A stretch of 64,000 bases of DNA from Candidatus Omnitrophota bacterium (GCA_016935525.1 JAFGQU010000022.1:12471-76470), one strand, 5' to 3'; shown: positions 12,795 through 32,377, numbered from the stretch's first letter. Notes: generated by a model from the sequence alone, not told the origin. Numbers and translations are program-made.

Positions 12795-14081
12795 TCAAAA
12801 TTCTCCGTGGAGCACCGAAGCGATTTCTTCCTTTTTTCCCTGTATAAAAAAATTAAGTTGTGGTGAAGAATTTTGCAGGGCGGGTCTTTTTTCAGGGGCC
12901 AGTCGTTCCCGGATATCTTCGGGAGTGAAAGGGATATCGCCATGATATTTCCCTTTTACCGTAATGAAATATTGAGCCCGTTTGAGCGATATTCTCATCT
13001 TTTTCAGGTCTTCGATCCGTAAAGATTTTACTTGCCGGGTGAGGACTATTTTATATGCCCCCTGTACCCCTATCCCCGGGACGCGTATCAGCGTCTCATA
13101 ATCAGCACGATTTATCTCTACGGGAAATTTTTCCGGATGACGTAATGCCCAACTCGCCTTGGGATCGACTTCCAGATCAAGGTGCGGAGTGTTTTTCGTA
13201 AAGAGTTCCCGTCCGTCGAACCCGTAAAACCGGATCAGCCAATCAGCCTGATAGAGGCGGTGTTCACGTAACAACGGGATAGCGGTGGTGAGTGCCGGGA
13301 GATTTTTCGTGGTGTTTACCGGTACATACGCCGAATAGTAGACCCTTTTCAAATGGATTGATTGATAGAGCCATTGACTTAACCCCATGATCTCCAGGTC
13401 CGTTTCCGGAGTAGCTCCGATGATCAATTGAGTGCTTTGGCCGGCCGGAGCATATGCCGGTACTTTTTTATGCTTTTTCCGTAACGCGATCATCGAACGT
13501 ATCGAAGTGTCGAGCCTTTTCATCGGGCCGATGATCTCGGGCATTTTTTTATCCGGGGCAAGAAGAGCGAGACTTTTTTGGGTAGGTAATTCGATGTTTA
13601 CGCTTACCCGGTCGGCGTACCGCCCGGCGATCTCCAAGAGACGCGGTGAGGTCCCGGGGATGATTTTAAGGTGGATATATCCGCCGAACTGACGGCGTCC
13701 GCGCAACTGGCGCACTATCTCGATCATCCGTTCCATCGTATAGTCGGGAGTTTTAATGACCGCCGAACTCAAAAATAATCCTTCAATATAGTTTTTTTCA
13801 TAAAAATCTACGGTAAGATCGATGAGTTCACGAGGTTCGAACGTTGCCCGCGGGATATCGTTACTACGCCGGTTTACGCAATAGGCGCAATCATAGATGC
13901 ATACGTTGGTCATCAGTATTTTTAATAATGAAATGCATCGTCCATCGGACGACCAGCTATGACAGATCCCGCCCAGGACAGTCATTCCCAGTTTATTTTT
14001 TCGTTTTGCGCCGCTGGAGGAGCAGCTGACGTCATATTTCGCGCTTTCGGCCAGAATTTTAAATTTTTCTAACGTATTCAT
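12795..14081 (-). CDS. Putative DNA modification/repair radical SAM protein (TIGR03916-like)
   Basis: MNTLEKFKILAESAKYDVSCSSSG N-terminus. CIYDCAYCVNRR radical-SAM CxxxCxxC motif. C-terminal HhH-like LIRVPGIGVQGAYKIV. The ORF-track N-terminal extension (to 14222) reads through the tandem repeats. Start set at the internal Met (~14081). Confidence 0.75.
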   Translation of the reverse strand: MNTLEKFKILAESAKYDVSCSSSGAKRKNKLGMTVLGGICHSWSSDGRCISLLKILMTNVCIYDCAYCVNRRSNDIPRATFEPRELIDLTVDFYEKNYIEGLFLSSAVIKTPDYTMERMIEIVRQLRGRRQFGGYIHLKIIPGTSPRLLEIAGRYADRVSVNIELPTQKSLALLAPDKKMPEIIGPMKRLDTSIRSMIALRKKHKKVPAYAPAGQSTQLIIGATPETDLEIMGLSQWLYQSIHLKRVYYSAYVPVNTTKNLPALTTAIPLLREHRLYQADWLIRFYGFDGRELFTKNTPHLDLEVDPKASWALRHPEKFPVEINRADYETLIRVPGIGVQGAYKIVLTRQVKSLRIEDLKKMRISLKRAQYFITVKGKYHGDIPFTPEDIRERLAPEKRPALQNSSPQLNFFIQGKKEEIASVLHGEF

Positions 14082-14138
14082 GATATATAAAATACAAAAA
14101 CCTTCGCCGTTTTTAGCGAAGGTTTTACTTGACCCAAA

Positions 14139-14305
14139 TTGCGAAACAATTTGCCCGTAGGGCCGATCCCAAAACTGAAAGTTTTGGAACAGATCGGGGT
14201 CACCCTCTTGAGGGTATTCCATGATCTGCGAAGCAATTTGCCCGTAGGGCCGATCCCAAAACTGAAAGTTTTGGAACAGATCGGGGTCACCCTCTTTTGA
14301 GGGTT
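14139..14305. repeat. Near-identical tandem direct repeat (2 x ~87 bp), each with a bulged hairpin. In the 5' leader of the radical-SAM gene
   Basis: Unit TGCGAA(A/G)CAATTTGCCCGTAGGGCCGATCCCAAAACTGAAAGTTTTGGAACAGATCGGGGTCACCCTCTT(T)GAGGGT occurs twice. Inner stem CCGATC..CCAAAACT-gaa-AGTTTTGG..GATCGG. A further hairpin CCTTCGC-cgttttta-GCGAAGG plus T-run lies at 14100-14127, ~15 nt before the ATG. Confidence 0.85.
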
Positions 14306-14503: not shown

Positions 14504-15952
14504 TTAGAATGTCGGCAACTCGGAATTTCCCATAAGATAGCGGTCGATATGATGTGCTGCCCGGCGGCCTTCAGAGATTGCCCAGACGATCAGGGATTGG
14601 CCGCGATGGGCATCGCCGCAGGCAAATATGCCTTTTTGCGAGGTCATAAACCTTTGGTCGGTCTGAGCGTTATTCCGGTTATCTTTTTTGATCCCGAGGT
14701 CGTCCAGTAATCCCTGTTGGGGATGTAAGAACCCTACCGCTAAAATGACCAGATCGGCATCAATATCGAATCCGCTGCCCGGTATTTCCTGCATGAGCGG
14801 ACAGGATTCGGGACTGTTCGGGTCTTTTTTAAATTCGACTTCCACACATTTGATTTTTTTGATCTCACCATTTTTTCCTACAAACTCTTTGGTGAGTACC
14901 GACCAATGACGGTTTCCTCCTTCTTCATGACTGGAAGAAGTTTTTAAAAGCATCGGATAGGCCGGCCAGGGATCGTTTTCTCTACGGCACTGAGGCGGTT
15001 GCGGAAGAAGTTCGATTTGAACCACGCAAGAAGCATCCTGACGATGGGCTGTACCCACGCAATCCGAACCGGTATCTCCTCCTCCGATCACTACTACCCG
15101 TTTACCCTGGGCGGTGATCATTTTTTCAGGAACAGTTATCCCGGCAATCCGGCGGTTATTCTGTATAAGATAATCCATCGCAAAATAGATACCGTTAAGG
15201 TCCCGGCCGGGAAGAGTGAGGTCCCGGGGAACCCGGGAACCGGTCGCGATACAGATCGCGTCAAATCTATTCCGTAACGTTTCGGGTTCGAGGTCTTTAC
15301 CGATTTCGATATTTGTCTCAAATCGGACTCCTTCTTGTTCCCATATCCGCAGCCGGCGGTCGATCACCTGTTTTTCCAGTTTAAAATCAGGGATCCCGTA
15401 GCGCAAGATGCCTCCGCATTTTTCATCTTTTTCATACACGGTTACCGTATGGCCGGCTTGATTTAGTTGTGCCGCACAACTCAATCCCGCCGGTCCCGAT
15501 CCGATTATCGCCACCTTTTTCCCGGTACGCGATTGCGGCGGGCGAGGCCGGATCAGGCCATGGGTAAACCCGTATTCAATGATCGAGAGTTCATTTTCCC
15601 GGATAGTGACCGGATCATCATTGATCCCTAATACGCAGGCATATTCACAAGGCGCCGGGCATACCCGTCCGGTAATTTCCGGAAGATTATTGGTTGTGCC
15701 TAACAGTTGTAACGCTTTTTCCCAACGCCCTGAGATCATCGCGTCGTTCCATTCCGGAATATAATTTCCGACAGGACAGGCCCAATGACAAAAAGGAGTA
15801 CCGCAATCCATACAGCGTGATGCCTGTTCGGCCGATTTCTCATCACTACGTAACAAAGACACTTCTTTATAATCTTTTATCCGTTCGCAGACCGGCCGAT
15901 ACGGTGTTTTTTCTCTTTTTGTCTTTAAAAACGCTTTTACGTCCTTCGCCAT
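14504..15952 (-). CDS. gltD: Glutamate synthase (NADPH) small subunit
   Basis: Two Cys clusters ([23 protein letters not shown]). GSGPAGL FAD/NAD folds. 482 aa. Directly downstream of gltB. Confidence 0.9.
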
Positions 15953-16061
15953 TGCTCACTCCGTTCGCTACACAGATGATCGCTGATTTTATACTGATGA
16001 GCGCAGATATTTGCATCTGTGATTATATGCTTCTCCAGTTTCTGTAGCAATCTGCGTATAA

Positions 16062-19000
16062 TCAATCCGATACTTCGGTCAATCCTAATTTCTTGTCGAC
16101 ACCTTGCATTTCCAGGATCTTTTTATATTCTAACGGCATTATCTTTACGAATTTTTCCACACAATCGTTAAAATTATCCAATACTTTTTTGGCGACGGTA
16201 CTTTGAGTATATTTATAATGATTACTCACTAAAGAATGAATAAGTTGAGTATCATCCTCATGTAGGGTCTCAAATTTTACCATGCTCAGGTTACATTTTG
16301 CCCGGAAATCCTCTTCGGTATCCCATACATAAGCGATTCCTCCGCTCATTCCCGCGGCAAAGTTTCGCCCGGTACGTCCTAAGACCACTACCCGTCCCCC
16401 GGTCATATATTCACAGCCATGGTCGCCGACTCCTTCGACTACGGCATAGAGACCGGAATTACGAATACAAAACCGTTCGCCGGCAATCCCGCGGATATAG
16501 GCTTCGCCCGATATCGCTCCGTAAAAAGAAGTGTTTCCGATAATAATATTCTCCTGGGGAATATATTCGGCGTTACGGTCGGGATAGATGATGATTTTCC
16601 CGCCGGAGGTACCTTTGCCGACATAATCATTAGCCATGCCTTCTAATTCGAACGTGATCCCTTTCGCAAGCCAGGCTGCGAAACTCTGGCCGGCAATACC
16701 CCGGAATTTGATCTGGATCGTATCTTCCAGAAGCCCTTCTTCTCCGTAAAATCTACATACCTCACCGCTTAACATCGCTCCGGTAGTACGGTCGGTATTT
16801 TTAATCGATACTTCAAATTTTACCGGTTCGGAATTATTATTTAAAGTATACCGGCATAGATCGATAAGCTTTCGGTCAAGCACGCTGTCTATTCGGTGAT
16901 CCTGAGTACGTTGACAATAAGTGCCTACATCCGGCGGTACCTGCGGTTTATAGAGTATCCGCGAGAAATCGATCCGGGTCGCTTTCCAGGGCAGGATATT
17001 GGTATCGACTTCTAAAAGGTCGGTACGGCCGATAAGCTCATCGATCGTCCGTATTCCCAGAGAAGCCATGATCTCACGCAGTTCTTCAACAACAAAGTTA
17101 AAATAATTGACGATATGTTCCGGACGGCCCTGAAATTTTTTCTGCAAAAGATCATCCTGGGTCGCTATTCCTACCGAACAATTATTTAGATGACAATGCC
17201 GTAACATGACGCATCCCATTATAATCAATGTTGCGGTACAGAATCCGAATTCTTCGGCTCCCAGAATGGCAGCGATTGCGACATCTCTTCCGGTACGTAA
17301 TTGCCCGTCGGTCTGCAGGCGTACCCGTGACCGCAGGTCGTTTAAGACTAAGGTTTGATGCGTTTCCGATACCCCCAGTTCCCAGGGTAACCCGGCATGG
17401 CGGATAGAACTGACCGGAGACGCTCCGGTCCCGCCGTCTCCGCCGGAAATAAGGATCATATCGGAATGTCCTTTCGCTACGCCGGCGGCAATAGTGCCTA
17501 CTCCGATTTCCGAGACCAGTTTTACGCTGATCCGCGCGTGCGGATTGGTGTTTTTCAGATCAAAAATAAGTTGAGCCAGGTCTTCGATCGAGTAAATATC
17601 ATGATGCGGCGGCGGTGAGATTAAAGTGACCCCTGGTGTCGTGTATCTGGTTTTCGCGATGGTAGGCGATACTTTATGACCGGGCAGTTGTCCTCCTTCG
17701 CCCGGTTTCGCTCCTTGAGCGATCTTTATCTGCAATTCGTCGGCATTCGTAAGATAGTTTGTGGTTACTCCAAACCGGCCGGACGCGACCTGTTTTATCG
17801 CGCTGCGCCGAGAATCTCCGTTAGGATGAGGGATAAACCGTGCGGGGTCTTCGCCTCCTTCACCGGTATTTGATTTTCCACCGAGCTTATTCATGGCGAT
17901 TGCCAGGGTTTCATGGGCGCCCCGGGAAATAGAACCGAAACTCATCGCTCCGGTAGCGAACCGTTTAAAAATATCTTCTTTCGGTTCGACCTCATCGATA
18001 GGGATAGTCTCAGACCTCTTGAATTTCAGCAGACTGCGTAATGTCGTCGGCTGTGCCGATTGATCGTTGATCAGGCGGGCAAATTCCCGATATTTCTGAG
18101 GATCGTTTTTACGGGTAGCGTCCTGCAGGGCGGCGATACTGTGCGGGTTCCAGAGATGGAACTCTCCGTCCCGTTTCCACTGGTAAAGCCCTCCGGTATC
18201 CAAAAGTGCGTTATACCCTGAACGTTGTGGGTAAGCATTGTGGTGTCGAAGAATCGTCTCGCGCGCGATGATCTCGAAATCCACTCCGCCGATACGGGAT
18301 ACCGTACCGGTAAAACTCCTTTCGATCACTTCATCGGCAACGCCTAAGGCTTCGAATATCTGAGCCCCGCGATAACTCTGTAACGTAGATATACCCATTT
18401 TGGAAAGGACCTTTTTGATACCTTTATCTATCGCTTGTATATAATTTTTTTTGGCCGTCGGGATATCCAGTTCCAGCTCCCCTTCTCTCTCGAGATATTC
18501 GATCGATTCAAGAGCAAGATAGGGGTTTATTGCGCCGCACCCGTAACCGAAAAGTAACGCAAAATGGTGGACTTCCCGCGGTTCGGCGCTTTCTAAGATC
18601 AACGCGATCTGAGAACGGGAGGTTTTCCGTACCAGATGGTGGTGTACGGTCCCGATAGCCAGTAGTGCCGGTATGGCCGCGTGATCCTGGTTGAATCCGC
18701 GGTCACTTAACACGATAAACGTATATCCTTCTTTAATCGCCGCCTCGGATTCCCGGCAGATCGCGTCAAGACGTTTCATGAAATTATCGGAAGAATCGGC
18801 TTTAAACAGCAACGAAACCGTTTTGGTCTTAAATCCTTTCTCTTTAATATTTTTTATGAGAACAAGGTCTTCATCGGTAAGGATCGGGTGCGGCAGGTGG
18901 ACTCGCCGGGCATGAGCTTCGGTCTCATCGAGAAGATTGCGCCGTGAGCCCATAAAACATTCCAGGCTCATCACGATCTCTTCGCGGATCGGATCGATTG

Positions 19001-20591
19001 CCGGGTTGGTCACCTGCGCAAAAAGCTGTTTAAAATAGCTATACAATAATTGCGGTTTTTTAGAAAGTACGGCAAGCGGCGTATCGTTTCCCATCGAGCC
19101 GGTAGGTTCTAATCCGGTATGGGCCATCGGTTTGATGATCATCTTTAGATCTTCGCGCGTATAGCCGAAGGCTTTAAGCGAAGTCAAAGTTTTCTGTCCG
19201 TTTGCAGGCGGGGTTTCTTTCCTGGGAAGTTCACCCAGTTCTACTAAAGTGTTTTTAAGCCACTCGGCGTACGGTTTTTGGATAGAAACCGTTTCTTTCA
19301 CTTCCTGATCGTCTATGATACGACCTTCTTCGGTATCGACAAAAAACATTTTCCCCGGTTCCAGCCGGCCGGAAGAGATGATGTCACCGGCGGGAATATC
19401 GAGTACCCCTACCTCTGATGCCATTACTACCATATTGTGTGTAGTGATGATATACCGCGAAGGGCGCAGACCGTTACGGTCCAGGACCGCTCCGATCCTG
19501 GTCCCGTCAGTAAAAGCAATACTCGCCGGGCCGTCCCAGGGTTCCATTAAACAGGACATATATTTATGGAACGACCGGACCCGTTCATCAAGAAAGGTGT
19601 TCTGTTCCCAGGCCGAAGGGATAAGCATCATCATCGCGTGAGGAAGACTTCGTCCGGCCAATACCAACAGTTCCAACACCAGATCGATAGTCGCCGAATC
19701 GCTCAGTCCTGGAATAATGATCGGTTTTAGTTTTTCGATGTCCGGGCCGAACAACGGAGATGCTAAAAGCTGTTCTTTTGCGCTCATCCAGTTGATATTT
19801 CCCCGTAATGTGTTGATCTCACCGTTATGGGCGAGAAACCTGAACGGCTGGGCAAGGTCCCAGGTAGGAAACGTATTGGTACTGTAACGGGAATGGACCA
19901 GGGCAATCGAACTTTTAAGGTCGGGATCATTAAGGTCGACAAAAAAGCTCTGTAATTGATCGGGCATCAGAAGCCCTTTATAAGAGAACGTACGGCAGGA
20001 AAGGTTGGTGATATAGAAAAACGATTTTTGAGTTATGTTCGATGCAGCGACGGTTTTTTCTACCAGACGGCGGATCACGTACAGTTTTCGTTCGAACGCA
20101 AGCTGATCGGCAAGGTCCGGGGATCTTTGGATAAAAATCTGTTCGATGGCCGGTTGGGCCTTTTTTGCTCCTTTTCCGATATCGGTATTATTCACGGGAA
20201 CCTGCCGCCAGCCCAGTAACGTCTGTCCTTCTTCGCTCACGGTTTTGGCAAAAATATCTTTTAAGAGCTTTTTTTCCCGGGTATCCGTAGGTAAAAAGAT
20301 CAATCCGGTTCCGTAATCGCCATAATCCGGTAATTTGATGCGGGCGGTATCGGCTATTTTCCGGAAAAATTCGTGAGGAGTTTGGATGAGAATTCCCGCA
20401 CCGTCACCGGTCTTAGGGTCTGATCCTACCGCGCCGCGATGAGCCAGACGGTTTAAAACCCCTATTCCCTGCTGAACGAGAGCATAGGATTTTTCCCCCT
20501 TTATGTGACAGACAAATCCGACCCCGCAGGAATCTTTTTCAAATTGTGGGTCATATAAACCTTGTTTTTGAGGGAAATGAGTATATTCCAT
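16062..20591 (-). CDS. gltB: Glutamate synthase large subunit
   Basis: 1509 aa. N-terminal class II amidotransferase CGVGF. Central and FMN domains. C-terminal GXGXG domain. Confidence 0.95.
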   Translation of the reverse strand: MEYTHFPQKQGLYDPQFEKDSCGVGFVCHIKGEKSYALVQQGIGVLNRLAHRGAVGSDPKTGDGAGILIQTPHEFFRKIADTARIKLPDYGDYGTGLIFLPTDTREKKLLKDIFAKTVSEEGQTLLGWRQVPVNNTDIGKGAKKAQPAIEQIFIQRSPDLADQLAFERKLYVIRRLVEKTVAASNITQKSFFYITNLSCRTFSYKGLLMPDQLQSFFVDLNDPDLKSSIALVHSRYSTNTFPTWDLAQPFRFLAHNGEINTLRGNINWMSAKEQLLASPLFGPDIEKLKPIIIPGLSDSATIDLVLELLVLAGRSLPHAMMMLIPSAWEQNTFLDERVRSFHKYMSCLMEPWDGPASIAFTDGTRIGAVLDRNGLRPSRYIITTHNMVVMASEVGVLDIPAGDIISSGRLEPGKMFFVDTEEGRIIDDQEVKETVSIQKPYAEWLKNTLVELGELPRKETPPANGQKTLTSLKAFGYTREDLKMIIKPMAHTGLEPTGSMGNDTPLAVLSKKPQLLYSYFKQLFAQVTNPAIDPIREEIVMSLECFMGSRRNLLDETEAHARRVHLPHPILTDEDLVLIKNIKEKGFKTKTVSLLFKADSSDNFMKRLDAICRESEAAIKEGYTFIVLSDRGFNQDHAAIPALLAIGTVHHHLVRKTSRSQIALILESAEPREVHHFALLFGYGCGAINPYLALESIEYLEREGELELDIPTAKKNYIQAIDKGIKKVLSKMGISTLQSYRGAQIFEALGVADEVIERSFTGTVSRIGGVDFEIIARETILRHHNAYPQRSGYNALLDTGGLYQWKRDGEFHLWNPHSIAALQDATRKNDPQKYREFARLINDQSAQPTTLRSLLKFKRSETIPIDEVEPKEDIFKRFATGAMSFGSISRGAHETLAIAMNKLGGKSNTGEGGEDPARFIPHPNGDSRRSAIKQVASGRFGVTTNYLTNADELQIKIAQGAKPGEGGQLPGHKVSPTIAKTRYTTPGVTLISPPPHHDIYSIEDLAQLIFDLKNTNPHARISVKLVSEIGVGTIAAGVAKGHSDMILISGGDGGTGASPVSSIRHAGLPWELGVSETHQTLVLNDLRSRVRLQTDGQLRTGRDVAIAAILGAEEFGFCTATLIIMGCVMLRHCHLNNCSVGIATQDDLLQKKFQGRPEHIVNYFNFVVEELREIMASLGIRTIDELIGRTDLLEVDTNILPWKATRIDFSRILYKPQVPPDVGTYCQRTQDHRIDSVLDRKLIDLCRYTLNNNSEPVKFEVSIKNTDRTTGAMLSGEVCRFYGEEGLLEDTIQIKFRGIAGQSFAAWLAKGITFELEGMANDYVGKGTSGGKIIIYPDRNAEYIPQENIIIGNTSFYGAISGEAYIRGIAGERFCIRNSGLYAVVEGVGDHGCEYMTGGRVVVLGRTGRNFAAGMSGGIAYVWDTEEDFRAKCNLSMVKFETLHEDDTQLIHSLVSNHYKYTQSTVAKKVLDNFNDCVEKFVKIMPLEYKKILEMQGVDKKLGLTEVSD

Positions 20592-20602
20592 AGCTCTTTC
20601 AT

Positions 20603-20875
20603 TTAACCGAGGATACCGCGATAATAATCGACGTCAATCCGGTATTTTTCTATTTTGGTATGAAGCGTGTTACGGTTGATCCCCAACATTTTAGCGGCTT
20701 TCAGTTTATTGCCGAAGGTGCGTTCCAGGACTATTTCAATCAACTTTTTTTCAATGAGAGCTACGATGTCTTTATAGATTTCCCGGTGTTTGCCTTTGAT
20801 GATCAAAGAATCCACTTCTTTTTTTAAGTCGAGATAAAGGTTTTCTTCGTGAGGATCAGGATTTAATTTTTCCAT
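20603..20875 (-). CDS. Fis-family (HTH_8) small DNA-binding protein
   Basis: C-terminus NKLKAAKMLGINRNTLHTKI matches the Fis/NtrC-type HTH. 90 aa, 11 nt upstream of gltB. Confidence 0.55.
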   Translation of the reverse strand: MEKLNPDPHEENLYLDLKKEVDSLIIKGKHREIYKDIVALIEKKLIEIVLERTFGNKLKAAKMLGINRNTLHTKIEKYRIDVDYYRGILG

Positions 20876-20994
20876 TGTATCAGGATGATTGTTTTTACCC
20901 GAACGATTTTTCGATATTTTCTGTCATAGGATGCCTTATTTTTAGGCAAAAAAGAGCAAAATTTTTTCCGTACCGGCTTTACTTTAAAAATGGA

Positions 20995-21699
20995 CTATTG
21001 AACCGGTATGTTTTTATTGATCAAACGGGCGAAATTAAGAAAAATCCGTTGCGCGGCCAGGTTATATGTATCTTCGATATCGTGAGCCCGCAGGACCATC
21101 TGAGTACAATACGAGTTGTTCCAACGGTCCCGGTGAACATATTCTTTTATCCATTCGACGATCATTTTTGGTTTGATCTCCACATGAAACTGTAACGCAT
21201 AGGCGTTTCCGATACGGAACGCCTGATCACAGATAGCCGATGTCGCCAGTAATTGGCTTCCCGGAGGGATAGTGAACGTATCGTGATGCCATTGGAACAC
21301 TTCCATATTTTCGCCTATTCCTTCGAATAAAGGATCGGTTAAGCCTTCCGGCGTGAAATCTATAGTATGCCAGCCGATTTCTTCGGATGAGGCTCGCGTC
21401 ACTATTGCTCCGGATGCTTTCGCAATCAGTTGGGCTCCCAGGCAAATTCCTAATACGGGGATTTTCTGCGTCAGGATATCTTGGATAAAACTATTCTCTT
21501 TTGCCAGAAAAGGGAATTTTTTCTCTTCATAGACGTTCATCGAGCCGCCCAGGATCACTACCGCATCGGCATCGGCTGGATCCGGTAGTGAATCCCCGGC
21601 GTAAAGACGAATAGTTTGAACCGGCAGTTTCCCTGATTGAAAGAAATCCAGAAGTAATCCCGGTCCTTCGATATCAATATGCTGTAGAAAATAGATCAT
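20995..21699 (-). CDS. Class I glutamine amidotransferase (GATase1), stand-alone
   Basis: VVILGGSMNVYEE...IPVLGICLGAQL catalytic-Cys context. HxE at the C-terminus (QFHVE). Confidence 0.75.
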   Translation of the reverse strand: MIYFLQHIDIEGPGLLLDFFQSGKLPVQTIRLYAGDSLPDPADADAVVILGGSMNVYEEKKFPFLAKENSFIQDILTQKIPVLGICLGAQLIAKASGAIVTRASSEEIGWHTIDFTPEGLTDPLFEGIGENMEVFQWHHDTFTIPPGSQLLATSAICDQAFRIGNAYALQFHVEIKPKMIVEWIKEYVHRDRWNNSYCTQMVLRAHDIEDTYNLAAQRIFLNFARLINKNIPVQ

Positions 21700-21717
21700 C
21701 GCGGTCAGAATGTTTTT

Positions 21718-23823
21718 TCACAGGACCAGTAACAGTTCCTGATATTTTGCCAATGGCCATAATTCGTCGGCGACTACCGTCTCGGCGGTATCTATCGCTT
21801 CCCGTAATGTATCCAGAGCCCGAGCTCCTTTGGTCGCGTACGCTTCGGAGATCTTTATAAGCGTAGATTCTTTTTCACAGGCGGCCATGGCTTTCTCAAG
21901 ATTGTGCGTCCCGGTAAGGATCTTAGCATACAGATCATTGAGTAATTTGATCTCAGTGTTAAACGGGGACGATTTTATGCCGGCAGTTTTTGCCGCGGCC
22001 TGCGATGGAGCGATAAGCGCGATCTGTTGAGCGATTGCCGGTAAGATCATGGTCCGGGCGATATTGACCGCTGTTTTAAATTCGATATCTTTAGTCTTAT
22101 TGTACGCTTCCAGTTTGATCTCTATTTTAGAGTGGAGCTCTTTTTCGGTCAAAATGTCGAACCGTTTAAACAGCTCAAGCGCATCTTTGTTCAGAAATAA
22201 CTTTAATGCTTCAGGAGTGTTTTTGGTGTTAGGCAACCCGCGTTTTGCAGCTTCTTTATGCCATTTCTCGTCATAATTATTTCCTTCGAACCGTACTCGT
22301 TTAGTTTCTTTAAAGACCTCTTCAAGTACCGCGATCGCTTTTTCCGCAGGACTGGTCTTTGTCTTTTTCTTTTCAATCCTATCGGCAATTTCTTCATAAC
22401 CGTAAGCCATGATCAGATTGAGCATGGTCGCGGCTTCCGAACAGTTTTGACTTGACCCTACTGCCCGGAATTCAAATTTATTTCCGGTAAAAGCCAGCGG
22501 AGAAGTCCGGTTACGGTCGGATGTATCTTTGGCTACTTTAGGAAGATTTTGTACTCCGACATAAATTTCCGAGAGTTTTTTATCGGTAATCGTCCCTAAC
22601 CCTTCGATCTGATCGAGTAACGCGTCGAGATATTCTCCTAAATATACCGAAATGATAGCCGGCGGCGCTTCGTTTGCCCCTAACCGATGATCATTACCGG
22701 CATCGGCGACCGCCGACCGCAGGAGCCCGCCATATTTATGTACTCCCAGCAATATCGCGCCCAGCGAGATAAGAAAGATGATGTTATCTTTTGGCGAACC
22801 GGAAGGATCAAAATAGTTCGCGCCGGTATTATCTCCGATCGACCAGTTAAAATGTTTTCCGGAACCATTGACTCCGGCAAGCGGTTTTTCGTGTAATAAC
22901 GCGACTATTTCGTGAGCTTCGGCGACTTTTCTCATGATATCCATAAGCTGAAGGTTATGATCAATCGAGAGGTTTACCTCTTCATACAGCGGCGCGATCT
23001 CAAACTGGTTCGGCGATACTTCGTTATGACGGGTTTTTGAGGGTATCCCGCGACGATAAAGCTCCCGGTCCATATCTTCCATGAACATGATCACTTTTTC
23101 TTTTATCGCCCCGAAATAATGGTCTTCCATCTGCTGACCTTTTGCCGGAGTCGCTCCGAAAAGCGTTCTTCCGCAAATTTGCAGATCAGGACGGGTTCCA
23201 TAAAGAGCTTGGGAAAAAAGAAAGTATTCCTGTTCGGGGCCGCCATAGACTTTGATCTGTTCGGTATGTTTGTGCCCTAGGAGACGATTGATACGTAATG
23301 CCGCTTCGTTGACCGCGTTCAGCGAACGCAGTAACGGGGTCTTGATATCGAGGACTTCCCCGGTCCAGGAAAGAAATATCGAAGGGATCACCAGAGTTTT
23401 AGTCTCTCCCGCTTCCAGAAGAAAAGCCGGAGACGTCGGGTCCCAGGCCGTATATCCTCTGGCTTCAAACGTCGAACGTATTCCTCCGGAAGGAAATGAT
23501 GACGCGTCCGGTTCTGATTGGATCAATTGTTGTGCTGAGAAACGTTCGACGATATCGCCCCCTTCACCGTAAGAAATAAAAGCATCGTGTTTTTCGGCGG
23601 TACCGCCCCGTTGCGGCTGGAACCAATGGGTGAAATGAGTCGCGCCGTTTTCGATTGCCCATTCTTTCATGGCGTGGGCGACATCACCGGCAATCGATTG
23701 GTCCAGAGGTTTTCCGCTTTCAATAGTTGCCAATAGTTTGCGGTACACATCTTTATTAAGTTTTTCCAGCATCACTTTCTTACTGAATGTCAGTTCTCCG
23801 AAGATATCACTTATCTTAGGCAT
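21718..23823 (-). CDS. glnN: Glutamine synthetase type III
   Basis: About 700 aa, GS-III-like N-terminus (THFTHWFQPQRGGTAEKHD). AAAAAGGAGGT lies 7 nt before the second ATG (MPKISD), so the start is set at ~23823 rather than 23844. Confidence 0.8.
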   Translation of the reverse strand: MPKISDIFGELTFSKKVMLEKLNKDVYRKLLATIESGKPLDQSIAGDVAHAMKEWAIENGATHFTHWFQPQRGGTAEKHDAFISYGEGGDIVERFSAQQLIQSEPDASSFPSGGIRSTFEARGYTAWDPTSPAFLLEAGETKTLVIPSIFLSWTGEVLDIKTPLLRSLNAVNEAALRINRLLGHKHTEQIKVYGGPEQEYFLFSQALYGTRPDLQICGRTLFGATPAKGQQMEDHYFGAIKEKVIMFMEDMDRELYRRGIPSKTRHNEVSPNQFEIAPLYEEVNLSIDHNLQLMDIMRKVAEAHEIVALLHEKPLAGVNGSGKHFNWSIGDNTGANYFDPSGSPKDNIIFLISLGAILLGVHKYGGLLRSAVADAGNDHRLGANEAPPAIISVYLGEYLDALLDQIEGLGTITDKKLSEIYVGVQNLPKVAKDTSDRNRTSPLAFTGNKFEFRAVGSSQNCSEAATMLNLIMAYGYEEIADRIEKKKTKTSPAEKAIAVLEEVFKETKRVRFEGNNYDEKWHKEAAKRGLPNTKNTPEALKLFLNKDALELFKRFDILTEKELHSKIEIKLEAYNKTKDIEFKTAVNIARTMILPAIAQQIALIAPSQAAAKTAGIKSSPFNTEIKLLNDLYAKILTGTHNLEKAMAACEKESTLIKISEAYATKGARALDTLREAIDTAETVVADELWPLAKYQELLLVL

Positions 23824-23945
23824 GGTAACCTCCTTTTTCTTCATCGGGTTTGACTTACATAATAAGAAACGTTCCCTAACCCTTATCGTCAGAGAACGCC
23901 TTTGTTCTTTTTCTGCCTATTTTTCGGGCACTTCGTTGTACTAAA

Positions 23946-23978
23946 TATACAAGTAATAATCTTGCCGATTTGGTAACC
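23946..23978 (-). promoter_or_regulatory. Conserved 33-nt motif (copy 1) upstream of glnN: TATACAAGTAA-N12-TTGCC-N6-GGTAACC
   Basis: About 85% identical to 28677..28709. Contains an imperfect palindrome TTGCCGATTTGGTAA. About 100 nt upstream of the glnN start. Confidence 0.35.
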
Positions 23979-23983
23979 ATTTT

Positions 23984-24325
23984 TTATCCTATCGCCGTAT
24001 TGCCGGTTTCCCCGGTGCGAATACGGATACATTGGCCTAAATCTATGACAAATATTTTACCATCTCCGATGTTTCCTGTCTTGGCCCCTTTTATGATCGC
24101 AGCAATAGTAGATTGCACAAAATCCTCGTTTACCGCGATCTCCAGGCGTATTTTCTTCAGGAGATTTACCTCGTGGATCACGCCACGATAGGTTTCAGTA
24201 TACCCTTTTTGCTGCCCGCAGCCAAGAGCATTTGTTACGGTCATTTTATAGACTTCAGCTTCATAAAGGGCTTTTTTTACATCCGGTAATTTATGCGGTT
24301 GAATCATTGCAATTATTAATTTCAT
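23984..24325 (-). CDS. glnK: P-II nitrogen regulatory protein
   Basis: Near-canonical P-II sequence. T-loop [12 protein letters not shown]. 113 aa. Immediately downstream of amt. Confidence 0.9.
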
Positions 24326-24339
24326 TTTTATCCCTCCGT

Positions 24340-25683
24340 TTAGCGGGTAGTGAATATTTGAAACCCGGAATAGGATTCCATCCCATGTTGGCTAATATCC
24401 AATCCTTTCAATTCTTCTTCACGTGATACGCGTAAACCGGTCAACTTTTTCAACAGGGTAAACACCAGCCCCATAGTAACGGCAACGAATACGGCCGTAG
24501 TAAATACTCCCAAAGCCTGTATACCGAGTTGAGTGAATCCGCCTCCGTATATCAGGCCGTTATGAGCCAATCCCATAGCTTTCTGCCCGAATATACCTAC
24601 TGCGAGAGTACCCCAGATCCCGTTCATAGCGTGAACGGGAACGGCACCGACAGGATCGTCAACTCCGATTTTATCTAAAAATATTGTTCCCAGTACGACA
24701 ATGATCCCAGCGATTGCTCCGATGATCATGGCCGCCCATGGCTCAACGAACGCACAAGGAGCGGTTATGGCTACCAGTCCGGCGAGTGCGCCATTCATCG
24801 TCATGGTCAGATCCGGTTTCCCAAATAGTTTCCAGGCAAAAAACATTCCCGCAAGCGCTCCGCTTACCGCGGAAATATTCGTGGTCATAGCTACGTGAGC
24901 AATAAGGCTCCCGTCGCCGACACGTAATGTCGAACCGGGATTAAATCCAAACCAAGCAAACCATAATATAAGCGTACCCAACGAGGCCAATGTCATCGAA
25001 TGACCTTCGATCGCATTGGCTGATCCATCTTTATTAAATTTACCGATGCGCGGGCCGAGTATGATAGTTCCCATAAGTGCGGCGGTGCCGCCTACCGTAT
25101 GGACCACGGTAGATCCCGCAAAGTCAGCGAAATTAAGTTGTGACAACCATCCTCCGCCCCAGATCCAGTGGCCGACAATGGGGTATACTGTAGCGGAAAT
25201 AAGGAAAGAATAAATAAGGTATGCTTTAAATTTCATGCGTTCGGCGATTCCCCCGGCAACGATAGTTGCGGCCGCACCGCAGAATACCGCATGAAAAAAC
25301 CAGGTAGCATAAAGAGGAAGATGCCCTTCATGTGAGGCACCGATCAACGCCCATCCCTTAAATCCCATAAACGCATTCCCCGCTCCGAACATGATCGCAT
25401 AACCAAAAATATAGAACCCCATCGATGCCATACAGAAATCTAAAAAGTTGTTCATGAGGATATTACAGGTATTCTTTGTACGAATAAGACCGGCTTCCAG
25501 CATTCCGAATCCGGCCTGCATAATGAATACCATAAATGCCGCGATCATCACCCATAGCGTATCAATACCGGCGGTGATCGTGGCGATATCGGTCTGTGCC
25601 CACAGCTTAGAAGGTAGGATAAATAAACTCAATAGGGTGAGGATCCCTAACCCTGCATATTTCATTTTTGTCGATTTCATCAT
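24340..25683 (-). CDS. amt: Ammonium transporter (Amt)
   Basis: Amt family throughout. AAGGAG lies 6 nt before the internal ATGATG, so the start is set at ~25683 (MMKSTKMKY..., signal-peptide-like). Confidence 0.9.
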
Positions 25684-25740
25684 CAACTCCTTTAGTTTAT
25701 TCATTTGATTAACCGATTGAATAAAATGAGCCAAAAAAAA

Positions 25741-25923
25741 TCAGATCGTTTTCAACTTATCGTCCAGAAAACCAGCGTACACTCTATTGATACGATTGGT
25801 TTTCAGCCAACGTTCTAGGGTGGAGATCTGGATATCGGTTTTTTTCGATAATTCATATAGCGTATACCCTCTTTCTTGCTTTAAGTTGCGTAATTTATCA
25901 ATAAGTTCTTTGTTTTCCATCAA
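25741..25923 (-). CDS. Small HTH DNA-binding protein (60 aa) embedded between glnK(2) and amt(1)
   Basis: RGYTLYELSKKTDIQISTLERWLKTNRI is an XRE-like HTH. No clear RBS. Confidence 0.4.
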   Translation of the reverse strand: MMENKELIDKLRNLKQERGYTLYELSKKTDIQISTLERWLKTNRINRVYAGFLDDKLKTI

Positions 25924-25934
25924 TGTGTCTCAAA

Positions 25935-26276
25935 TTATCCGATTGCTTTGGAACCGGTCTCTCCGGTACGGATCCGGATACACTCGCCTAAATCGATTAC
26001 AAATATCTTCCCGTCACCGATATTTCCCGTACGGGCGCCTTTGATAATGGCATCAATAGTAGGTTGAATAAAATGCTCATTGACCGCGATTTCTAAACGG
26101 ACCTTCTTTAAGAGATTTACTTCATGGATTACTCCGCGATAGGTCTCGGTAAACCCTTTCTGCTGCCCGCAGCCAAGAGCATTGGTAACCGTCATTTTAT
26201 AGACCTCGGCCTCATAAAGGGCTTTTTTTACGTCGGGGAGTTTATGCGGTTGAATCATCGCGACTATAAGTTTCAT
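25935..26276 (-). CDS. glnK: P-II nitrogen regulatory protein (second copy)
   Basis: About 90% identical to the 23984..24325 product. Confidence 0.9.
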
Positions 26277-26305
26277 CGTATCTCTCCTCTTTTTTTATCC
26301 CATTT

Positions 26306-26338
26306 CTTGTACCGGGAAGACAACTTCCCGGGTACAAG
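26306..26338 (-). other. Intercistronic stem-loop between amt(2) and glnK(2)
   Basis: CTTGTACCGGGAAG-acaa-CTTCCCGGGTACAAG, a ~14-bp stem. No U-tract follows on the minus strand, so probably not a terminator. Confidence 0.5.
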
Positions 26339-26352
26339 AGAATGGCGTTTTA

Positions 26353-27702
26353 TTATTCAGTAGTAAATATCTGGAATCCGCTGTATGATTCCATCCCGTG
26401 TTCACCGATGTCCAGTCCTTTTAATTCTTCGTCAGGAGTTACCCGTAACCCCATTATTACTTTTATGATACCGAAAAGGATCGTTGCCGTACCGAATACC
26501 CAGATAAATACGCTGGCGACACCGATCAACTGGACGATAAATTGTCCCAGTCCCCCTCCGAAAAAGAGGCCGTCGATTCCGCCATACGCGCTTTCGGCAA
26601 ATAATCCGGCAGCCAACGTTCCCCAGGCACCGCATATTCCATGTACTGAAACTGCGCCTACCGGATCATCGATATGAAGTACTTTGTCAATAAACTCTAC
26701 ACTTAACACTACCAACGTCCCGCCGATCGCACCGATGATGATCGCGCTTAACGGTGAAACATTCGCGCACGGTGCGGTAATCGCGACCAGTCCGGCTAAG
26801 GCGCCATTTAAGGCCATACTGGTATCGGGTTTACCGAACCGTATCCAGGCTACACTCATCCCCATAATAGCTCCGGCGGCGGCAGCCAGATTGGTCGTGA
26901 CTGCGATGATCGCGATACTTAAATTCGTCCCGGAAGTAGTACTGCCCGGGTTAAATCCGAACCAGCCGAACCACAGGATGAATACCCCTAACGCTGCTAA
27001 AGGAATATTATGTCCGGGAATAGCATTTGATGAACCGTCTTTATTATATTTCCCTAACCGTGGACCTAACATGATCGCACCGGCAAGTGCGGCCCATCCG
27101 CCGACGGAATGGACGACCGTCGAGCCGGCAAAATCGATCATTCCTTTTGCCGCAAGCCATCCTCCGCCCCAGATCCAGTGGCCGACTACCGGATATATAA
27201 CCGCGGTAATACACACACTGTATGCCAGGTACGCATTAAATTTTGTCCGTTCCGCCATTGCGCCCGATACGATCGTCGCAGCGGTTGCGGCAAATACGGT
27301 TTGAAATATCCAGTAAGTAAATTGCCAAAGCCCTTCGGACGTAGCCGGATTAGCGGTACTTAAAAAGAACCCGTTTTTCCCGAACAGTCCCAATACGCTT
27401 GTTCCGAACATGATTCCGAATCCTACGGCCCAGTAGGCGATTGATCCTACCGAAAAATCCATAAGGTTTTTCATCATGATGTTGGCTGCGTTTTTTGCCC
27501 GGGTAAATCCCGTCTCGACCATGGCAAATCCGGCTTGCATAAAGAATACCAGAAACGCCGCAATAAGCGTCCATACGGTATCGATCGCAATCGCATTGCT
27601 TTCGGGCGTAGCTTCAGCCCACGCCGGCCGAATAACCGCAGTTATCGCCACCAGGAGTATCGGCAGCCATTGTACAGTTTTCAATAAAATCTTTTTAATC
27701 AT
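26353..27702 (-). CDS. amt: Ammonium transporter (Amt), second copy
   Basis: Amt family. Signal-peptide-like N-terminus. RBS AAGGGAGGT before the ATG. Confidence 0.9.
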   Translation of the reverse strand: MIKKILLKTVQWLPILLVAITAVIRPAWAEATPESNAIAIDTVWTLIAAFLVFFMQAGFAMVETGFTRAKNAANIMMKNLMDFSVGSIAYWAVGFGIMFGTSVLGLFGKNGFFLSTANPATSEGLWQFTYWIFQTVFAATAATIVSGAMAERTKFNAYLAYSVCITAVIYPVVGHWIWGGGWLAAKGMIDFAGSTVVHSVGGWAALAGAIMLGPRLGKYNKDGSSNAIPGHNIPLAALGVFILWFGWFGFNPGSTTSGTNLSIAIIAVTTNLAAAAGAIMGMSVAWIRFGKPDTSMALNGALAGLVAITAPCANVSPLSAIIIGAIGGTLVVLSVEFIDKVLHIDDPVGAVSVHGICGAWGTLAAGLFAESAYGGIDGLFFGGGLGQFIVQLIGVASVFIWVFGTATILFGIIKVIMGLRVTPDEELKGLDIGEHGMESYSGFQIFTTE

Positions 27703-27723
27703 AATGTACCTCCCTTATTTAAA

Positions 27724-28521
27724 TTAAAATGCATACGCAAAACTTATCCCGGTATAAAAGCGTTCCGGTTGATTCCCGTCGTTGGCATCTTTTAGATCAT
27801 CTAAAGGTATCGAATAGTTGATCGACGGCGTCATGGTTAACGTGTCGGTCAGAGGTAACGTCAATGCAAGAGAAAGACCGATATCATACCCACTTGTTCC
27901 GGCAATAAAGAGTTTTCGGTTATATCCGAAATGAGAGCCGAAATCAAGCGATATGCCGGTATCTTCGTGAAGCAGGAGACTGTAAGCCATATCCAGCGAA
28001 AAATAACTTCCCAATCCTCCGCCATGGTTCTGGTCGCCGTAATCACGATAATAGGTAAGTGAGGTTTCTACCGGCCAGTCCAGTCCCGGTATTTTGCTCA
28101 ATCCTAATCCGACATAAAATTCACGGCTATACAGGTTTGCCGCGGGAAAATCATAGTACGTATGCCCTACCGATACGCTCAAGAGATCGTTGATCGCTTT
28201 GGTATAATCGATCACATAATCGATCTCGTCCGATTGCCCCCCCTGATTATTGTCGGTATCCCAACTGCTCCAGAAACTGAAGGTGAACCCATAGGCGCTG
28301 ATGTGTATCCCTGGCTGGATGACCGGGTCCCGGTCAAGTAAAAAACCTCTCCAGACATAATCCGAATAGAAATCAAGCGTTCCGGAAATATCAACGTCGA
28401 TATGTAACTCGTCAAGGATACCCGCGCCATACACACTTTTCCCTAAAGGAAAAAGCATGCCGGTAATAAGCAGTACCCCTAAAGTTACGTGCCGTACGGT
28501 TATTAAAAGTGATTTTACCAT
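27724..28521 (-). CDS. Outer-membrane beta-barrel (porin-like) protein, co-operonic with amt
   Basis: Signal peptide MVKSLLITVRHVTLGVLLITGMLFPLGKSVYGAG. Alternating aromatic beta-strand pattern. C-terminal ...ISFAYAF. Start set at the internal Met with RBS AAAGGGGA. The ORF-track extension is likely untranslated. Confidence 0.6.
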   Translation of the reverse strand: MVKSLLITVRHVTLGVLLITGMLFPLGKSVYGAGILDELHIDVDISGTLDFYSDYVWRGFLLDRDPVIQPGIHISAYGFTFSFWSSWDTDNNQGGQSDEIDYVIDYTKAINDLLSVSVGHTYYDFPAANLYSREFYVGLGLSKIPGLDWPVETSLTYYRDYGDQNHGGGLGSYFSLDMAYSLLLHEDTGISLDFGSHFGYNRKLFIAGTSGYDIGLSLALTLPLTDTLTMTPSINYSIPLDDLKDANDGNQPERFYTGISFAYAF

Positions 28522-28571
28522 CGTGTGTCCCCTTTCGTTAAGGCGTTTGTTTGTATATCGGACCATTTTTT

Positions 28572-28630
28572 CAAAAAAAAACGTTTCACTGCACCCCACC
28601 CGGTGTAATGAAACGTCTTTGTTTTTTTAC
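28572..28630. terminator. Bidirectional rho-independent terminator (after the sigma-factor gene, in the leader of the porin-amt operon)
   Basis: AAAAAAAAACGTTTCA...(20-nt loop)...TGAAACGTCTTTGTTTTTTT. A-run on one side and T-run on the other. A second hairpin CACAGTAAA-caatcgtta-TTTACTGTG sits at 28643-28669. Confidence 0.6.
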
Positions 28631-28676
28631 CACTTTGTATACACAGTAAACAATCGTTATTTACTGTGCGTTCAAC

Positions 28677-28709
28677 TATACAAGTAACTGATTACCCGCT
28701 TTGGTAACC
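28677..28709 (-). promoter_or_regulatory. Conserved 33-nt motif (copy 2): TATACAAGTAA-N12-TTACC-N6-GGTAACC, upstream of the porin-amt-glnK operon
   Basis: tatacaagtaactgattacccgctttggtaacc, with perfect palindrome TTACC-cgcttt-GGTAA. Matches the copy upstream of glnN. Confidence 0.35.
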
Positions 28710-28710
28710 G

Positions 28711-29244
28711 TTAACTCAATAAAAGTTCGTGAGCTATATACGCGTACTTATGTTTGATCTTTTTGCCCGTCTTTACTACCATTACATGAGAGATTCCCAG
28801 AGTTTCTCCGATTTCCCGGGTAGTAAATCCGTCTAACTGCATCATAAAGATGTTCCGTTCCCGTACAGTAAGTACAGGCGTGATCTCGCCTAACAGCAGA
28901 TGAGCGTCGATCCAATGAACGGGAAATCCGTCATTCCTGTCCGGTATTTTCTTGTTCAGCGAGTCATGCCCGGTATGTTCAGATTCGGCATCCAGGCTTA
29001 ATGAGACCTTATCCAGAGATCTATACGTTTTCCGAATATAGTTTTTCAGAAAATAATAGCAGTTTTGCAAAATATAACTGTCGGTCTTATTGTTCCAGAA
29101 CCCGGTCATGTTTTGTTCCCAAAGGTGGGTAGAAGCTTCCTGATAGAGATCCTGTTCGTCAAAATAGGTATACCGATTATTGAGTTTATGCGTGATTGCT
29201 TTTAATTTAGGATTCAGTTTGACTATTAATTCTTCGAACTTCAT
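28711..29244 (-). CDS. Sigma-70 family (ECF-like) RNA polymerase sigma factor
   Basis: C-terminal region-4 HTH LTVRERNIFMMQLDGFTTREIGETLGISHVMVVKTGKKI. N-terminal region-2-like segment. RBS AAGGAGG. Confidence 0.55.
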   Translation of the reverse strand: MKFEELIVKLNPKLKAITHKLNNRYTYFDEQDLYQEASTHLWEQNMTGFWNNKTDSYILQNCYYFLKNYIRKTYRSLDKVSLSLDAESEHTGHDSLNKKIPDRNDGFPVHWIDAHLLLGEITPVLTVRERNIFMMQLDGFTTREIGETLGISHVMVVKTGKKIKHKYAYIAHELLLS

Positions 29245-29333
29245 AGGTACCTCCTTAAAAAATAAAAACCCTCATCAAGCTGTCATCGCTTAATGAGGGC
29301 GTCGTTGCCGCTTTTGGAGTTTTCCGGGGCCGT

Positions 29334-29364
29334 AAAAAAGAAAAACCCCAAATTACTTTGGGGC
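29334..29364 (-). terminator. Rho-independent terminator after 29432..30541
   Basis: Minus strand: CCCCAAA-gtaa-TTTGGGG followed by TTTTTCTTTTTT. Confidence 0.65.
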
Positions 29365-29431
29365 ATCTTTGCCTAAACCCGTTTCTACCTACATTGTAGA
29401 AACTATTCTTGTATTAAAGATACCATTAATC

Positions 29432-32327: not shown

Positions 32328-32377
32328 GGCATCCGTAAAAAATAAAAAACGTCCTTCCTCCTGAAAGAAAGGACGTC
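32328..32377 (-). terminator. Rho-independent terminator after the gltD/nfnB-like gene and its 3' repeat array
   Basis: ACGTCCTT-cctcctgaaaga-AAGGACGT with a long A-run on the + strand (U-run on the transcript). Confidence 0.55.

Follow-up and report, generated by a model that had tools for sequence, protein, structure and literature searches.

The window analysed here is a stretch of 64,000 nucleotides from an uncultivated Candidatus Omnitrophota bacterium (GCA_016935525.1, JAFGQU010000022.1:12471-76470), and all coordinates refer to the whole of it. Its minus strand exhibits a cluster for ammonium uptake and assimilation in the order sigL, channel gene, amt1, glnK1, hth60, amt2, glnK2, glnN, GATase1, fisL, gltB and gltD, as identified from open reading frames (ORFs), Pfam and NCBIfam (Table 1). 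These encode two ammonium transporters (Amt) each with a P-II protein (GlnK), a type III glutamine synthetase (GS-III), a class-I glutamine amidotransferase (GATase1), both subunits of glutamate synthase (GOGAT), an outer-membrane channel, two small helix-turn-helix (HTH) proteins and, in front, a protein resembling sigma factors of the extracytoplasmic function (ECF) type. A preliminary description of the window had listed the eleven genes and the sigma-like gene upstream of them in this order, with P-II proteins about 90% identical and a Fis-type HTH gene 11 nt upstream of gltB. All of this is borne out, the P-II proteins being identical at 102 of 113 residues. Here we describe the control elements of this cluster: a 33-bp promoter-like motif, leaders of the ANTAR-target type, and a GAF-ANTAR protein encoded in the same window.

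The metagenome scan for related loci used the sigL profile only, so that the loci obtained were unselected for nitrogen genes. The layout is seen again in about 80 metagenomic sigL loci. An amt, glnK or channel gene is found within 3 kb in 24 of the 31 sigL loci with at least 3 kb of downstream sequence, and a glutamine synthetase gene in two more. The few relatives of fisL occupy the corresponding place wherever contigs are of sufficient length: one locus (L001) exhibits the order glnK-GSIII-GATase1-fisL-gltB-gltD, and an Omnitrophica locus (L003) the order amt-glnK-amt-glnK-GS(type I)-GATase1-fisL-gltB-gltD. The GATase1 slot is also occupied in L001, L003, L004, L006, L100, L113 and L115. 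A few loci labelled Planctomycetia or Latescibacterota, taxon names that are metagenome-bin labels, hold sigL, channel, amt, glnK and fisL genes together with the motif and an ANTAR-domain ORF. The sigL-like, fisL and hth60 genes occupy the same positions in many independent contigs. These comparisons support the view that the block is conserved as a unit with a function in ammonium uptake and assimilation. The pairing of GS-III with GOGAT, put forward earlier as a merger, is not a distinctive trait of it, as L003 has a type I glutamine synthetase in the same slot.

The sequences just after the stop codons of sigL and glnK2 have in common a 33-bp motif, GGTTACCA-N14-TTACTTGTATA (longer form: GGTTACCAAAnCGG-N7-wTTACTTGTATA). 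The copy GGTTACCAAAGCGGGTAATCAGTTACTTGTATA begins 2 nt past the sigL stop codon and the copy GGTTACCAAATCGGCAAGATTATTACTTGTATA 5 nt past that of glnK2. There are exactly two copies in the 64 kb (chance expectation 0), with no third site even at 5 bits or more. The two blocks are set apart by a T-rich spacer that is fixed in length and unconserved in sequence. With a weight matrix derived from strict matches, 96 sites scoring at least 18 bits were found on the gene strand of the related loci versus a single one on the opposite strand; the best shuffled sequence reached 11.4 bits. The gene immediately before the site is sigL at 57 of the 96 sites and glnK at 23, and the genes downstream are amt (27), GS-III (16), glnK (11), the channel gene, GATase1 and fisL. 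That the motif is a by-product of a terminator hairpin formed across its spacer was ruled out, a stem of at least 5 bp being present in 20 of the 96 sites versus 24 of 96 after shuffling of the spacer.

A motif of this kind might instead act, beside a weak housekeeping promoter, as operator for a DNA-binding regulator of the cluster, be it fisL, hth60 or some unseen factor, with the ANTAR attenuators being real and the targets of sigL lying elsewhere. Such a reading would accommodate the two conserved DNA-binding proteins fisL and hth60, which have no assigned site, the short palindromes GGTnACC and TACnnGTA found one in each motif half, and the lack at sigL of the autoregulatory promoter typical of ECF sigma factors. 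It is hard to reconcile with the strict orientation of the motif (96 versus 1), its fixed 33-bp bipartite geometry around an unconserved spacer, and a first leader hairpin beginning about 10 nt downstream of it. Moreover, no separate -35/-10 elements are visible at the motif sites, while canonical TTGACA/TATAAT promoters elsewhere in the same loci indicate that the housekeeping consensus is different. The motif also follows sigL in 57 loci, whereas hth60 occurs in only six related loci. We regard an operator as unlikely, and take the motif for a candidate promoter recognised by sigL. A search for the sigma-54 promoter TGGCAC-N5-TTGC with one mismatch allowed gave a single match in the window, unrelated to the cluster.

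The sigL protein has more than 365 relatives. It scores 38.2 bits against the sigma factor model TIGR02937 (cut-off 42.9) and 23.8 bits against Sigma70_r4_2 (cut-off 25.7). A search of PDB profiles with the family profile matches regions 2 and 4 of FliA, SigF and SigA. The AlphaFold2 model (mean confidence score, pLDDT, 84.6) exhibits two helical domains, and its top Foldseek matches in the PDB are all ECF sigma factors (SigH, SigL, RpoE and SigW; probability 1.0). We infer that sigL is a divergent two-domain ECF-like sigma factor, for which promoter recognition is predicted. Upstream of sigL, many related loci exhibit a TTGACA-N17-TAtAaT promoter followed by tandem terminators, as does the window in a similar form (Table 1). 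These canonical promoters imply that the housekeeping consensus differs from the GGTTACCA motif. In many related loci sigL immediately follows a gene whose product shares one C-terminal ending, resembling what we take to be the C-terminus of NAD+ synthetase (NadE).

After nearly every motif there follow a short hairpin (P1), a second hairpin (P2), a GC-rich stem with a U tract, a ribosome-binding site and a start codon. P1 begins at a median distance of 10 nt from the motif end. Four genes of the window are preceded by strong terminators overlapped by a hairpin, namely the channel gene, glnN, sigL (in tandem) and a glutamate-synthase-related gene farther upstream. The 3' half of P2 falls within a terminator stem of 12-13 bp with the U tract after it, so that P2 and terminator are mutually exclusive. 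Minimum-free-energy folds of the window leaders are dominated by the terminators (z = -3.0 to -5.9). P1 and P2 have hexanucleotide loops whose first base is A and whose fourth base is G (A1/G4). For the statistics we used 91 segments selected solely by their position downstream of a motif. An intrinsic terminator is present in 84 of them. A hairpin with an A1/G4 hexaloop overlaps the terminator in 57, as against at most 6 for other loop combinations except G/G (27) and 0-1 in shuffled sequences. A second A/G hexaloop hairpin lies within the first 80 nt in 74. Over all loci, hairpin-terminator elements number 148 on the gene strand versus 15 on the other strand.

The P1 and P2 stems exhibit compensatory changes, with a covariation of 0.405 versus 0.188 in shuffled alignments (none of 500 shuffles as high) among 31 short-linker leaders. 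The sequences of that alignment were selected for pairing, and the count over the 91 unbiased segments is the stronger argument. A covariance model built on the same 31 leaders matches the channel leader at 28609-28642 with 30 bits (E-value = 3e-5). It under-scores the long-linker leaders such as that of glnN (14.6 bits), for which the pattern scan is more informative. Rfam gave no match in the whole window at gathering thresholds and none relevant in 20500-29500 at E-values up to 10; no tRNA was found by a tRNA scan. Taken together, these features of sequence and predicted folding identify the leaders as putative ANTAR antiterminator targets.

Long-linker leaders (in the window at about 23913-23921, minus strand; L096, L113, L125, L130 and L146) share the sequence AAAtTAGGCAgA between P1 and P2, and its TTAGGCA part is also found ahead of P1. 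The motif AAAtTAGGCAgA is reminiscent of the Geobacter GnfR site CAGGCAAnGGCGCC (PMC2995071).

Hairpins followed by U tracts shortly past the stop codons of sigL and glnK2 might simply be constitutive terminators of those upstream genes, a function to which their location would be well suited. Being downstream of the motif, such elements would abort the very transcripts that start there; nor would constitutive termination account for the strong over-representation of A1/G4 hexaloop hairpins overlapping the terminators, the linkage of ANTAR genes to the loci, or the tandem copies ahead of sigL. Constitutive termination is therefore highly improbable in our view, and we retain the interpretation of these elements as conditional, ANTAR-type terminators.

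A candidate antiterminator is encoded in the window itself, by a gene for a 234-aa GAF-ANTAR protein whose ANTAR domain scores 69 bits versus a cut-off of 27.3. With an ANTAR domain as query, tblastn detected ANTAR ORFs in 36 related loci; the window has one as well, which Pfam confirmed as GAF + ANTAR. When the window protein was the query, 19 of 29 loci were found to have a homologue upstream of sigL at no more than 4 kb from it.

We consider it fairly probable that the cluster is an ANTAR-gated nitrogen regulon combined with a dedicated sigma factor and promoter. According to this proposal, sigL would direct RNA polymerase to the promoter GGTTACCA-N14-TTACTTGTATA, which would drive an operon channel-amt1-glnK1-hth60-amt2-glnK2 and a second one, glnN-GATase1, probably continuing into fisL-gltB-gltD. 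Each of these transcripts would start with a leader that folds by default into an intrinsic terminator. The GAF-ANTAR protein, presumably by binding the A..G.. hexaloop hairpins, would block the terminator, the 5' arm of which is shared with the second hairpin, and so permit read-through. The sigL gene and the glutamate-synthase-related gene would be transcribed from promoters of the sigma-70 type, behind which lie similar ANTAR-type terminators. By first permitting synthesis of sigL and being needed again at each target operon, the antiterminator would thus create a feed-forward loop. The nitrogen signal would most likely act through the GAF domain, the P-II proteins or both. In broader and more tentative terms, it is possible that Omnitrophota, and perhaps neighbouring phyla, control nitrogen assimilation without NtrBC/sigma-54, through an undescribed ECF-like family devoid of anti-sigma factors, with sigma synthesis and each operon gated by GAF-ANTAR. 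In this view the partner needed to control the sigma factor or the ANTAR protein could be a P-II or P-II-like protein, the gene for which adjoins sigL in some loci.

Several observations weigh against this proposal. The link between sigL and the motif consists of adjacency and co-occurrence, the motif being present in 62 of 80 loci with sigL versus 3 of 84 without it, a comparison confounded by phylogeny in that the sigL-less loci mostly belong to other phyla. The sigL protein is under the curated cut-offs of every sigma model, and its gene adjoins no anti-sigma gene, the neighbours being a DAO-family oxidoreductase and the channel gene. No motif match has sigL as its downstream gene, so that the usual ECF autoregulation is not seen. 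The leaders of sigL and of the glutamate-synthase-related gene exhibit a convincing P2 and no convincing P1. In this genome a distance of 12 kb separates gltD from the gene for the GAF-ANTAR protein, which is not included in the interval first reported. No motif or leader was found in the window ahead of fisL-gltB or gltD, and co-transcription of fisL-gltB-gltD with glnN-GATase1 in this genome is accordingly an assumption; a motif and leader do precede fisL in L103 and L129. Finally, all compared loci come from uncultivated organisms.

The block had initially been viewed as a single regulon unit under local regulators other than NtrC. A strong form of this view would make it one co-transcribed supercluster whose expression depends chiefly on the pair of small HTH proteins encoded within it. 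Gene spacing inside the sub-blocks is tight, and the small genes keep their position (gltB is directly preceded by fisL, and hth60 is flanked by glnK and amt), as one would expect in that case. Within the block, strong terminators and repeated motifs are found at 28579-28709 and 23869-23978, and such signals are found again in other loci; many clusters of otherwise identical make-up lack hth60 (e.g. L003), and 3 of 11 gltB genes have no fisL ahead. We hold a single supercluster of this kind to be very unlikely. What stands of the initial view is a conserved uptake and assimilation block; promoters plus leader terminators mark at least four transcription units. Local regulators other than NtrC are likewise upheld; no sigma-54 promoter was found at the cluster, and sigL, fisL and hth60 recur. 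As the sigL-like protein (through the motif) and the GAF-ANTAR protein are those best tied to sequence signals, the small HTH ORFs are not the regulators to be placed first. The preliminary description had missed the ANTAR layer altogether, which illustrates how annotation of gene content alone overlooks the actual control elements.

The small HTH and Fis ORFs are nevertheless real genes, as had been supposed, since they form conserved families at fixed positions in related loci. fisL is found directly ahead of gltB in 8 of 11 related gltB genes. Its HTH_8 score of 54 bits is well above the cut-off of 22; it is under the NCBIfam equivalog cut-offs for Fis. Its profile aligns with residues 29-98 of E. 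coli Fis, comprising helices A-D (E-value = 3e-16), and we regard it as a genuine Fis-family protein, conforming to the four-helix dimer core and C-terminal HTH of that family and predicted from this alignment to be a dimeric DNA binder. The family is narrow, with 10 matches in 5.8 billion proteins in a word-indexed search. The 80 loci listed from a genome-collection scan with the fisL profile are mostly generic Fis proteins or C-termini of enhancer-binding proteins from other phyla, L004, L006, L007, L008, L018 and L019 being the only informative ones among them. hth60 belongs to a conserved 59-aa family with 22 invariant residues and resembles the N-terminal domain of SinR (E-value = 6e-4). 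L107, L113, L139 (two copies) and L141 carry it at the corresponding junction of glnK and amt, and L157 has it too. Its absence from the corresponding gap of L003 and from most loci rules it out as a universal component. The sequence signals found here assign neither fisL nor hth60 a binding site or role.

The two P-II copies score 95-96 bits against the Pfam P-II model. Their genes are 79.5% identical at the DNA level, with 46 synonymous and 11 non-synonymous codon differences. A recent duplication or gene conversion is ruled out by the 46 synonymous differences and by the unrelated flanks; these are old paralogues under constraint. Amt1 and Amt2 are 53% identical. In both P-II copies a histidine replaces the tyrosine at T-loop position 51 (GVIHEV), which makes uridylylation of the GlnD type at this position impossible. 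In six related loci (L107, L113, L139, L141, L089 and L115), the partner of the amt1-type gene is another type of P-II, with the T-loop GHGKQKG..QQWRGEKYKV containing Tyr51, often followed by hth60. The amt1 slot of the window has a glnK2-type P-II instead, so that a replacement of the partner seems to have taken place in this lineage. Directly after sigL, L115 (10747), L139 (10844) and L134 (1393) have a gene for a P-II-like protein whose T-loop is truncated, and a similar copy is found farther from sigL in L146 (6556). This protein might act as partner to the sigma factor; the gene is absent from the window. The 76-nt spacer between amt1 and glnK1 contains a hairpin of 14-15 bp without U tract (26306-26338, minus strand), which might be an RNA processing or stability element setting the Amt:GlnK ratio.

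The channel protein has no Pfam match. It scores 36.6 bits against TIGR02001, under the cut-off of 47.15, and many of its homologues carry PF09694. It probably belongs to an Omnitrophota family overlapping Gcw_chp/TIGR02001; essentially no literature was found on Gcw_chp/TIGR02001. Its AlphaFold2 model is a confident beta-barrel (pLDDT 91.5) with Foldseek matches to PcoB, NanC, KdgM and Tsx. Its start is most likely ATG 28521, because the terminator falls within the ORF extended to GTG-28599. The start of amt2 is probably ATG 25683, with a ribosome-binding site AAGGAG ahead of it, and that of hth60 probably ATG 25920. The location of the whole cluster on a single strand is uninformative, since the minus strand carries nearly all ORFs of at least 120 aa in the window.

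Table 1. Genes and control elements of the nitrogen cluster in the window
Feature	Position	Strand	Evidence or detail
GAF-ANTAR protein, 234 aa, candidate antiterminator	1974-2678	minus	Pfam GAF 7e-23, ANTAR PF03861 3e-19
gltD, GOGAT small subunit	14504-15952	minus	Pfam Fer4_20 + Pyr_redox_2
gltB, GOGAT large subunit	16062-20591	minus	GATase_2, Glu_syn_central, Glu_synthase, GXGXG
fisL, 90-aa Fis-family protein	20603-20875	minus	HTH_8, 54 bits
GATase1, stand-alone class-I glutamine amidotransferase	20995-21699	minus	Pfam GATase 9e-19
glnN, glutamine synthetase type III	21718-23844	minus	GSIII_N 243 bits, Gln-synt_C, Gln-synt_C-ter
glnN leader	23869-23941	minus	custom scan; minimum-free-energy fold with 12-bp terminator, z = -3.0
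glnN leader, terminator + U tract	23869-23899	minus	
glnN leader, P2 AGAAC-AAAGGC-GTTCT	23893-23908	minus	
glnN leader, P1 GTAC-AACGAA-GTGC	23928-23941	minus	
Motif copy before glnN	23946-23978	minus	41.6 bits
glnK2 (P-II)	23984-24325	minus	Pfam P-II 2e-27
amt2	24340-25734	minus	Pfam Ammonium_transp 429 bits
hth60, 59/60-aa Xre-type HTH protein	25741-25923	minus	HTH_26 25.7 bits
glnK1 (P-II)	25935-26276	minus	Pfam P-II 3e-27
amt1	26353-27702	minus	Pfam Ammonium_transp 446 bits
Channel gene, small outer-membrane beta-barrel, 265 aa from ATG	27724-28521 (ORF to GTG-28599)	minus	Gcw_chp/TIGR02001-like
Channel-amt leader	28579-28642	minus	fold z = -5.9
Channel leader, terminator + U tract	28579-28618	minus	
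Channel leader, P2 AAAC-AAAGAC-GTTT	28611-28624	minus	pattern scan
Channel leader, P1 TAC-AAAGTG-GTA	28628-28639	minus	pattern scan
Motif copy before channel gene	28677-28709	minus	38.5 bits
sigL, 177-aa ECF-like sigma-70-family protein	28711-29244	minus	TIGR02937 38 bits, below cut-off
sigL control region	29268-29445	minus	sigma-70-like promoter + two hairpin/terminator units; fold z = -5.5
sigL hairpin GGC-AACGAC-GCC	29298-29309	minus	terminator 29268-29300
sigL hairpin GGC-AAAGAT-GCC	29362-29373	minus	terminator 29345-29364
sigL promoter TTGACA-17-TATCTT	29417-29445	minus	sigma-70-like
Glutamate-synthase-related protein, 546 aa	30632-32272	minus	Pfam Glu_synthase 3e-15
Glutamate-synthase-related gene, control region	32348-32421	minus	fold z = -5.1
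Glutamate-synthase-related gene, hairpin AGGAC-AACGAC-GTCCT	32370-32385	minus	terminator 32348-32377
Glutamate-synthase-related gene, promoter TTGACA-N16-TATAGT	about 32394-32421	minus	sigma-70-like

Other features of the neighbourhood are likewise all on the minus strand. The glutamate-synthase-related gene is often beside sigL in related loci, according to the neighbourhood comparison. Between it and sigL in the window is a DAO-family flavoprotein gene (29432-30541), whose product best matches L-2-hydroxyglutarate oxidase (236 bits, under the cut-off of 299); an enzyme of this type would yield 2-oxoglutarate, which is both a GOGAT substrate and a P-II signal. Just upstream of the cluster, 32591-34998 encodes a GltD-like protein (Fer4_20 + Pyr_redox_2) and a DHOD-B-type iron-sulphur/NAD-binding protein, a pair that looks like NfnAB or sulfide dehydrogenase. 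A protein with GAF and HD_5 (HD-GYP-like) domains at 39047-40207 is possibly a cyclic-nucleotide phosphodiesterase. In the 109-nt gltB-gltD spacer (15953-16061) there are an inverted repeat, CACAGATG...CATCTGTG, and, at 16022-16050, a match to a sigma-70-like promoter. Directly downstream of gltD, genes for a radical-SAM protein with an HHH motif and a DUF4130 protein (12012-14222) seem unrelated to nitrogen metabolism.

ANTAR targets have been defined as two tandem short hairpins whose hexanucleotide loops have A in the first and G in the fourth position (PMC3369931). Ramesh et al. (2012) observed that such targets are frequent before P-II, amt, glutamine synthetase and GOGAT genes in several phyla, and noted that a characterised GAF-ANTAR protein was still lacking in 2012 (PMC3369931); we found no later characterised example in the literature. 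An experimentally studied nitrogen case is GnfR of Geobacter (PMC2995071). The present system resembles known ANTAR regulons, i.e. the dual-hexaloop targets of EutV, NasR and AmiR, those predicted in Desulfotomaculum and Pelobacter (PMC3369931) and those of Geobacter GnfK/GnfR (PMC2995071), in its pairs of A1/G4 hexaloop hairpins, in the overlap of the second hairpin with an intrinsic terminator, in the presence of an encoded ANTAR-domain protein, and in having several leaders per genome ahead of P-II, amt, glutamine synthetase and GOGAT genes. It differs in its regulator, which is GAF-ANTAR here and receiver-ANTAR, NIT-ANTAR or AmiC-controlled there. The promoters of the Geobacter leaders depend on sigma-54 and GnfM, whereas here a dedicated motif is linked to an ECF-like sigma gene, and this sigma gene itself is located behind ANTAR-type terminators.

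Compared with ECF sigma factors (group 4), sigL is similar in its size (about 175 aa), in its two helical domains corresponding to sigma2 and sigma4, in its best structural matches (SigH, SigL, RpoE and SigW) and in the bipartite candidate promoter of fixed spacing. It is distinguished by scores below the curated cut-offs of the hidden Markov models, by the lack of an adjacent anti-sigma factor and of an autoregulatory promoter, by an expression apparently gated by RNA antitermination, and by a putative regulon that serves central nitrogen assimilation and not functions of the envelope or of stress. In the 2021 reclassification of ECF sigma factors, the main text makes no mention of nitrogen, glutamine, P-II or Omnitrophica (PMC7826278). 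The target genes are the same as those of the NtrBC/sigma-54 system of Proteobacteria (glnA, amtB-glnK, gltBD), with P-II likewise inside the regulon. In contrast to that system, no -24/-12 promoter is tied to the cluster and the latter contains no NtrC-type enhancer-binding protein; the likeness of fisL to NtrC and Fis is confined to their DNA-binding end. Unlike E. coli Fis, fisL has no counterpart of the N-terminal beta-hairpin arm, and while E. coli fis is part of a dusB-fis operon, fisL is fixed directly upstream of gltB.

The ANTAR layer is thus a new instance of a known mechanism. For its pairing with a dedicated ECF-like sigma factor and promoter, and for the ANTAR gating of the sigma gene, we found no published description, nor did the literature on Omnitrophota, ECF sigma factors, ANTAR and nitrogen yield one of this arrangement. 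ANTAR attenuation of nitrogen genes has been predicted in several phyla and experimentally studied in few organisms. The present system is compact and defined by sequence, with a single sigma factor, promoter consensus, leader type and antiterminator, and it recurs about a hundred times in metagenomes, so that its reconstruction in a heterologous host would be feasible. If the link between sigL and the promoter is true, a nitrogen-assimilation regulon would be added to the functions of ECF-like sigma factors, sigma synthesis under RNA antitermination would have a natural case, and a first handle would be obtained on gene regulation in a phylum without cultured members.

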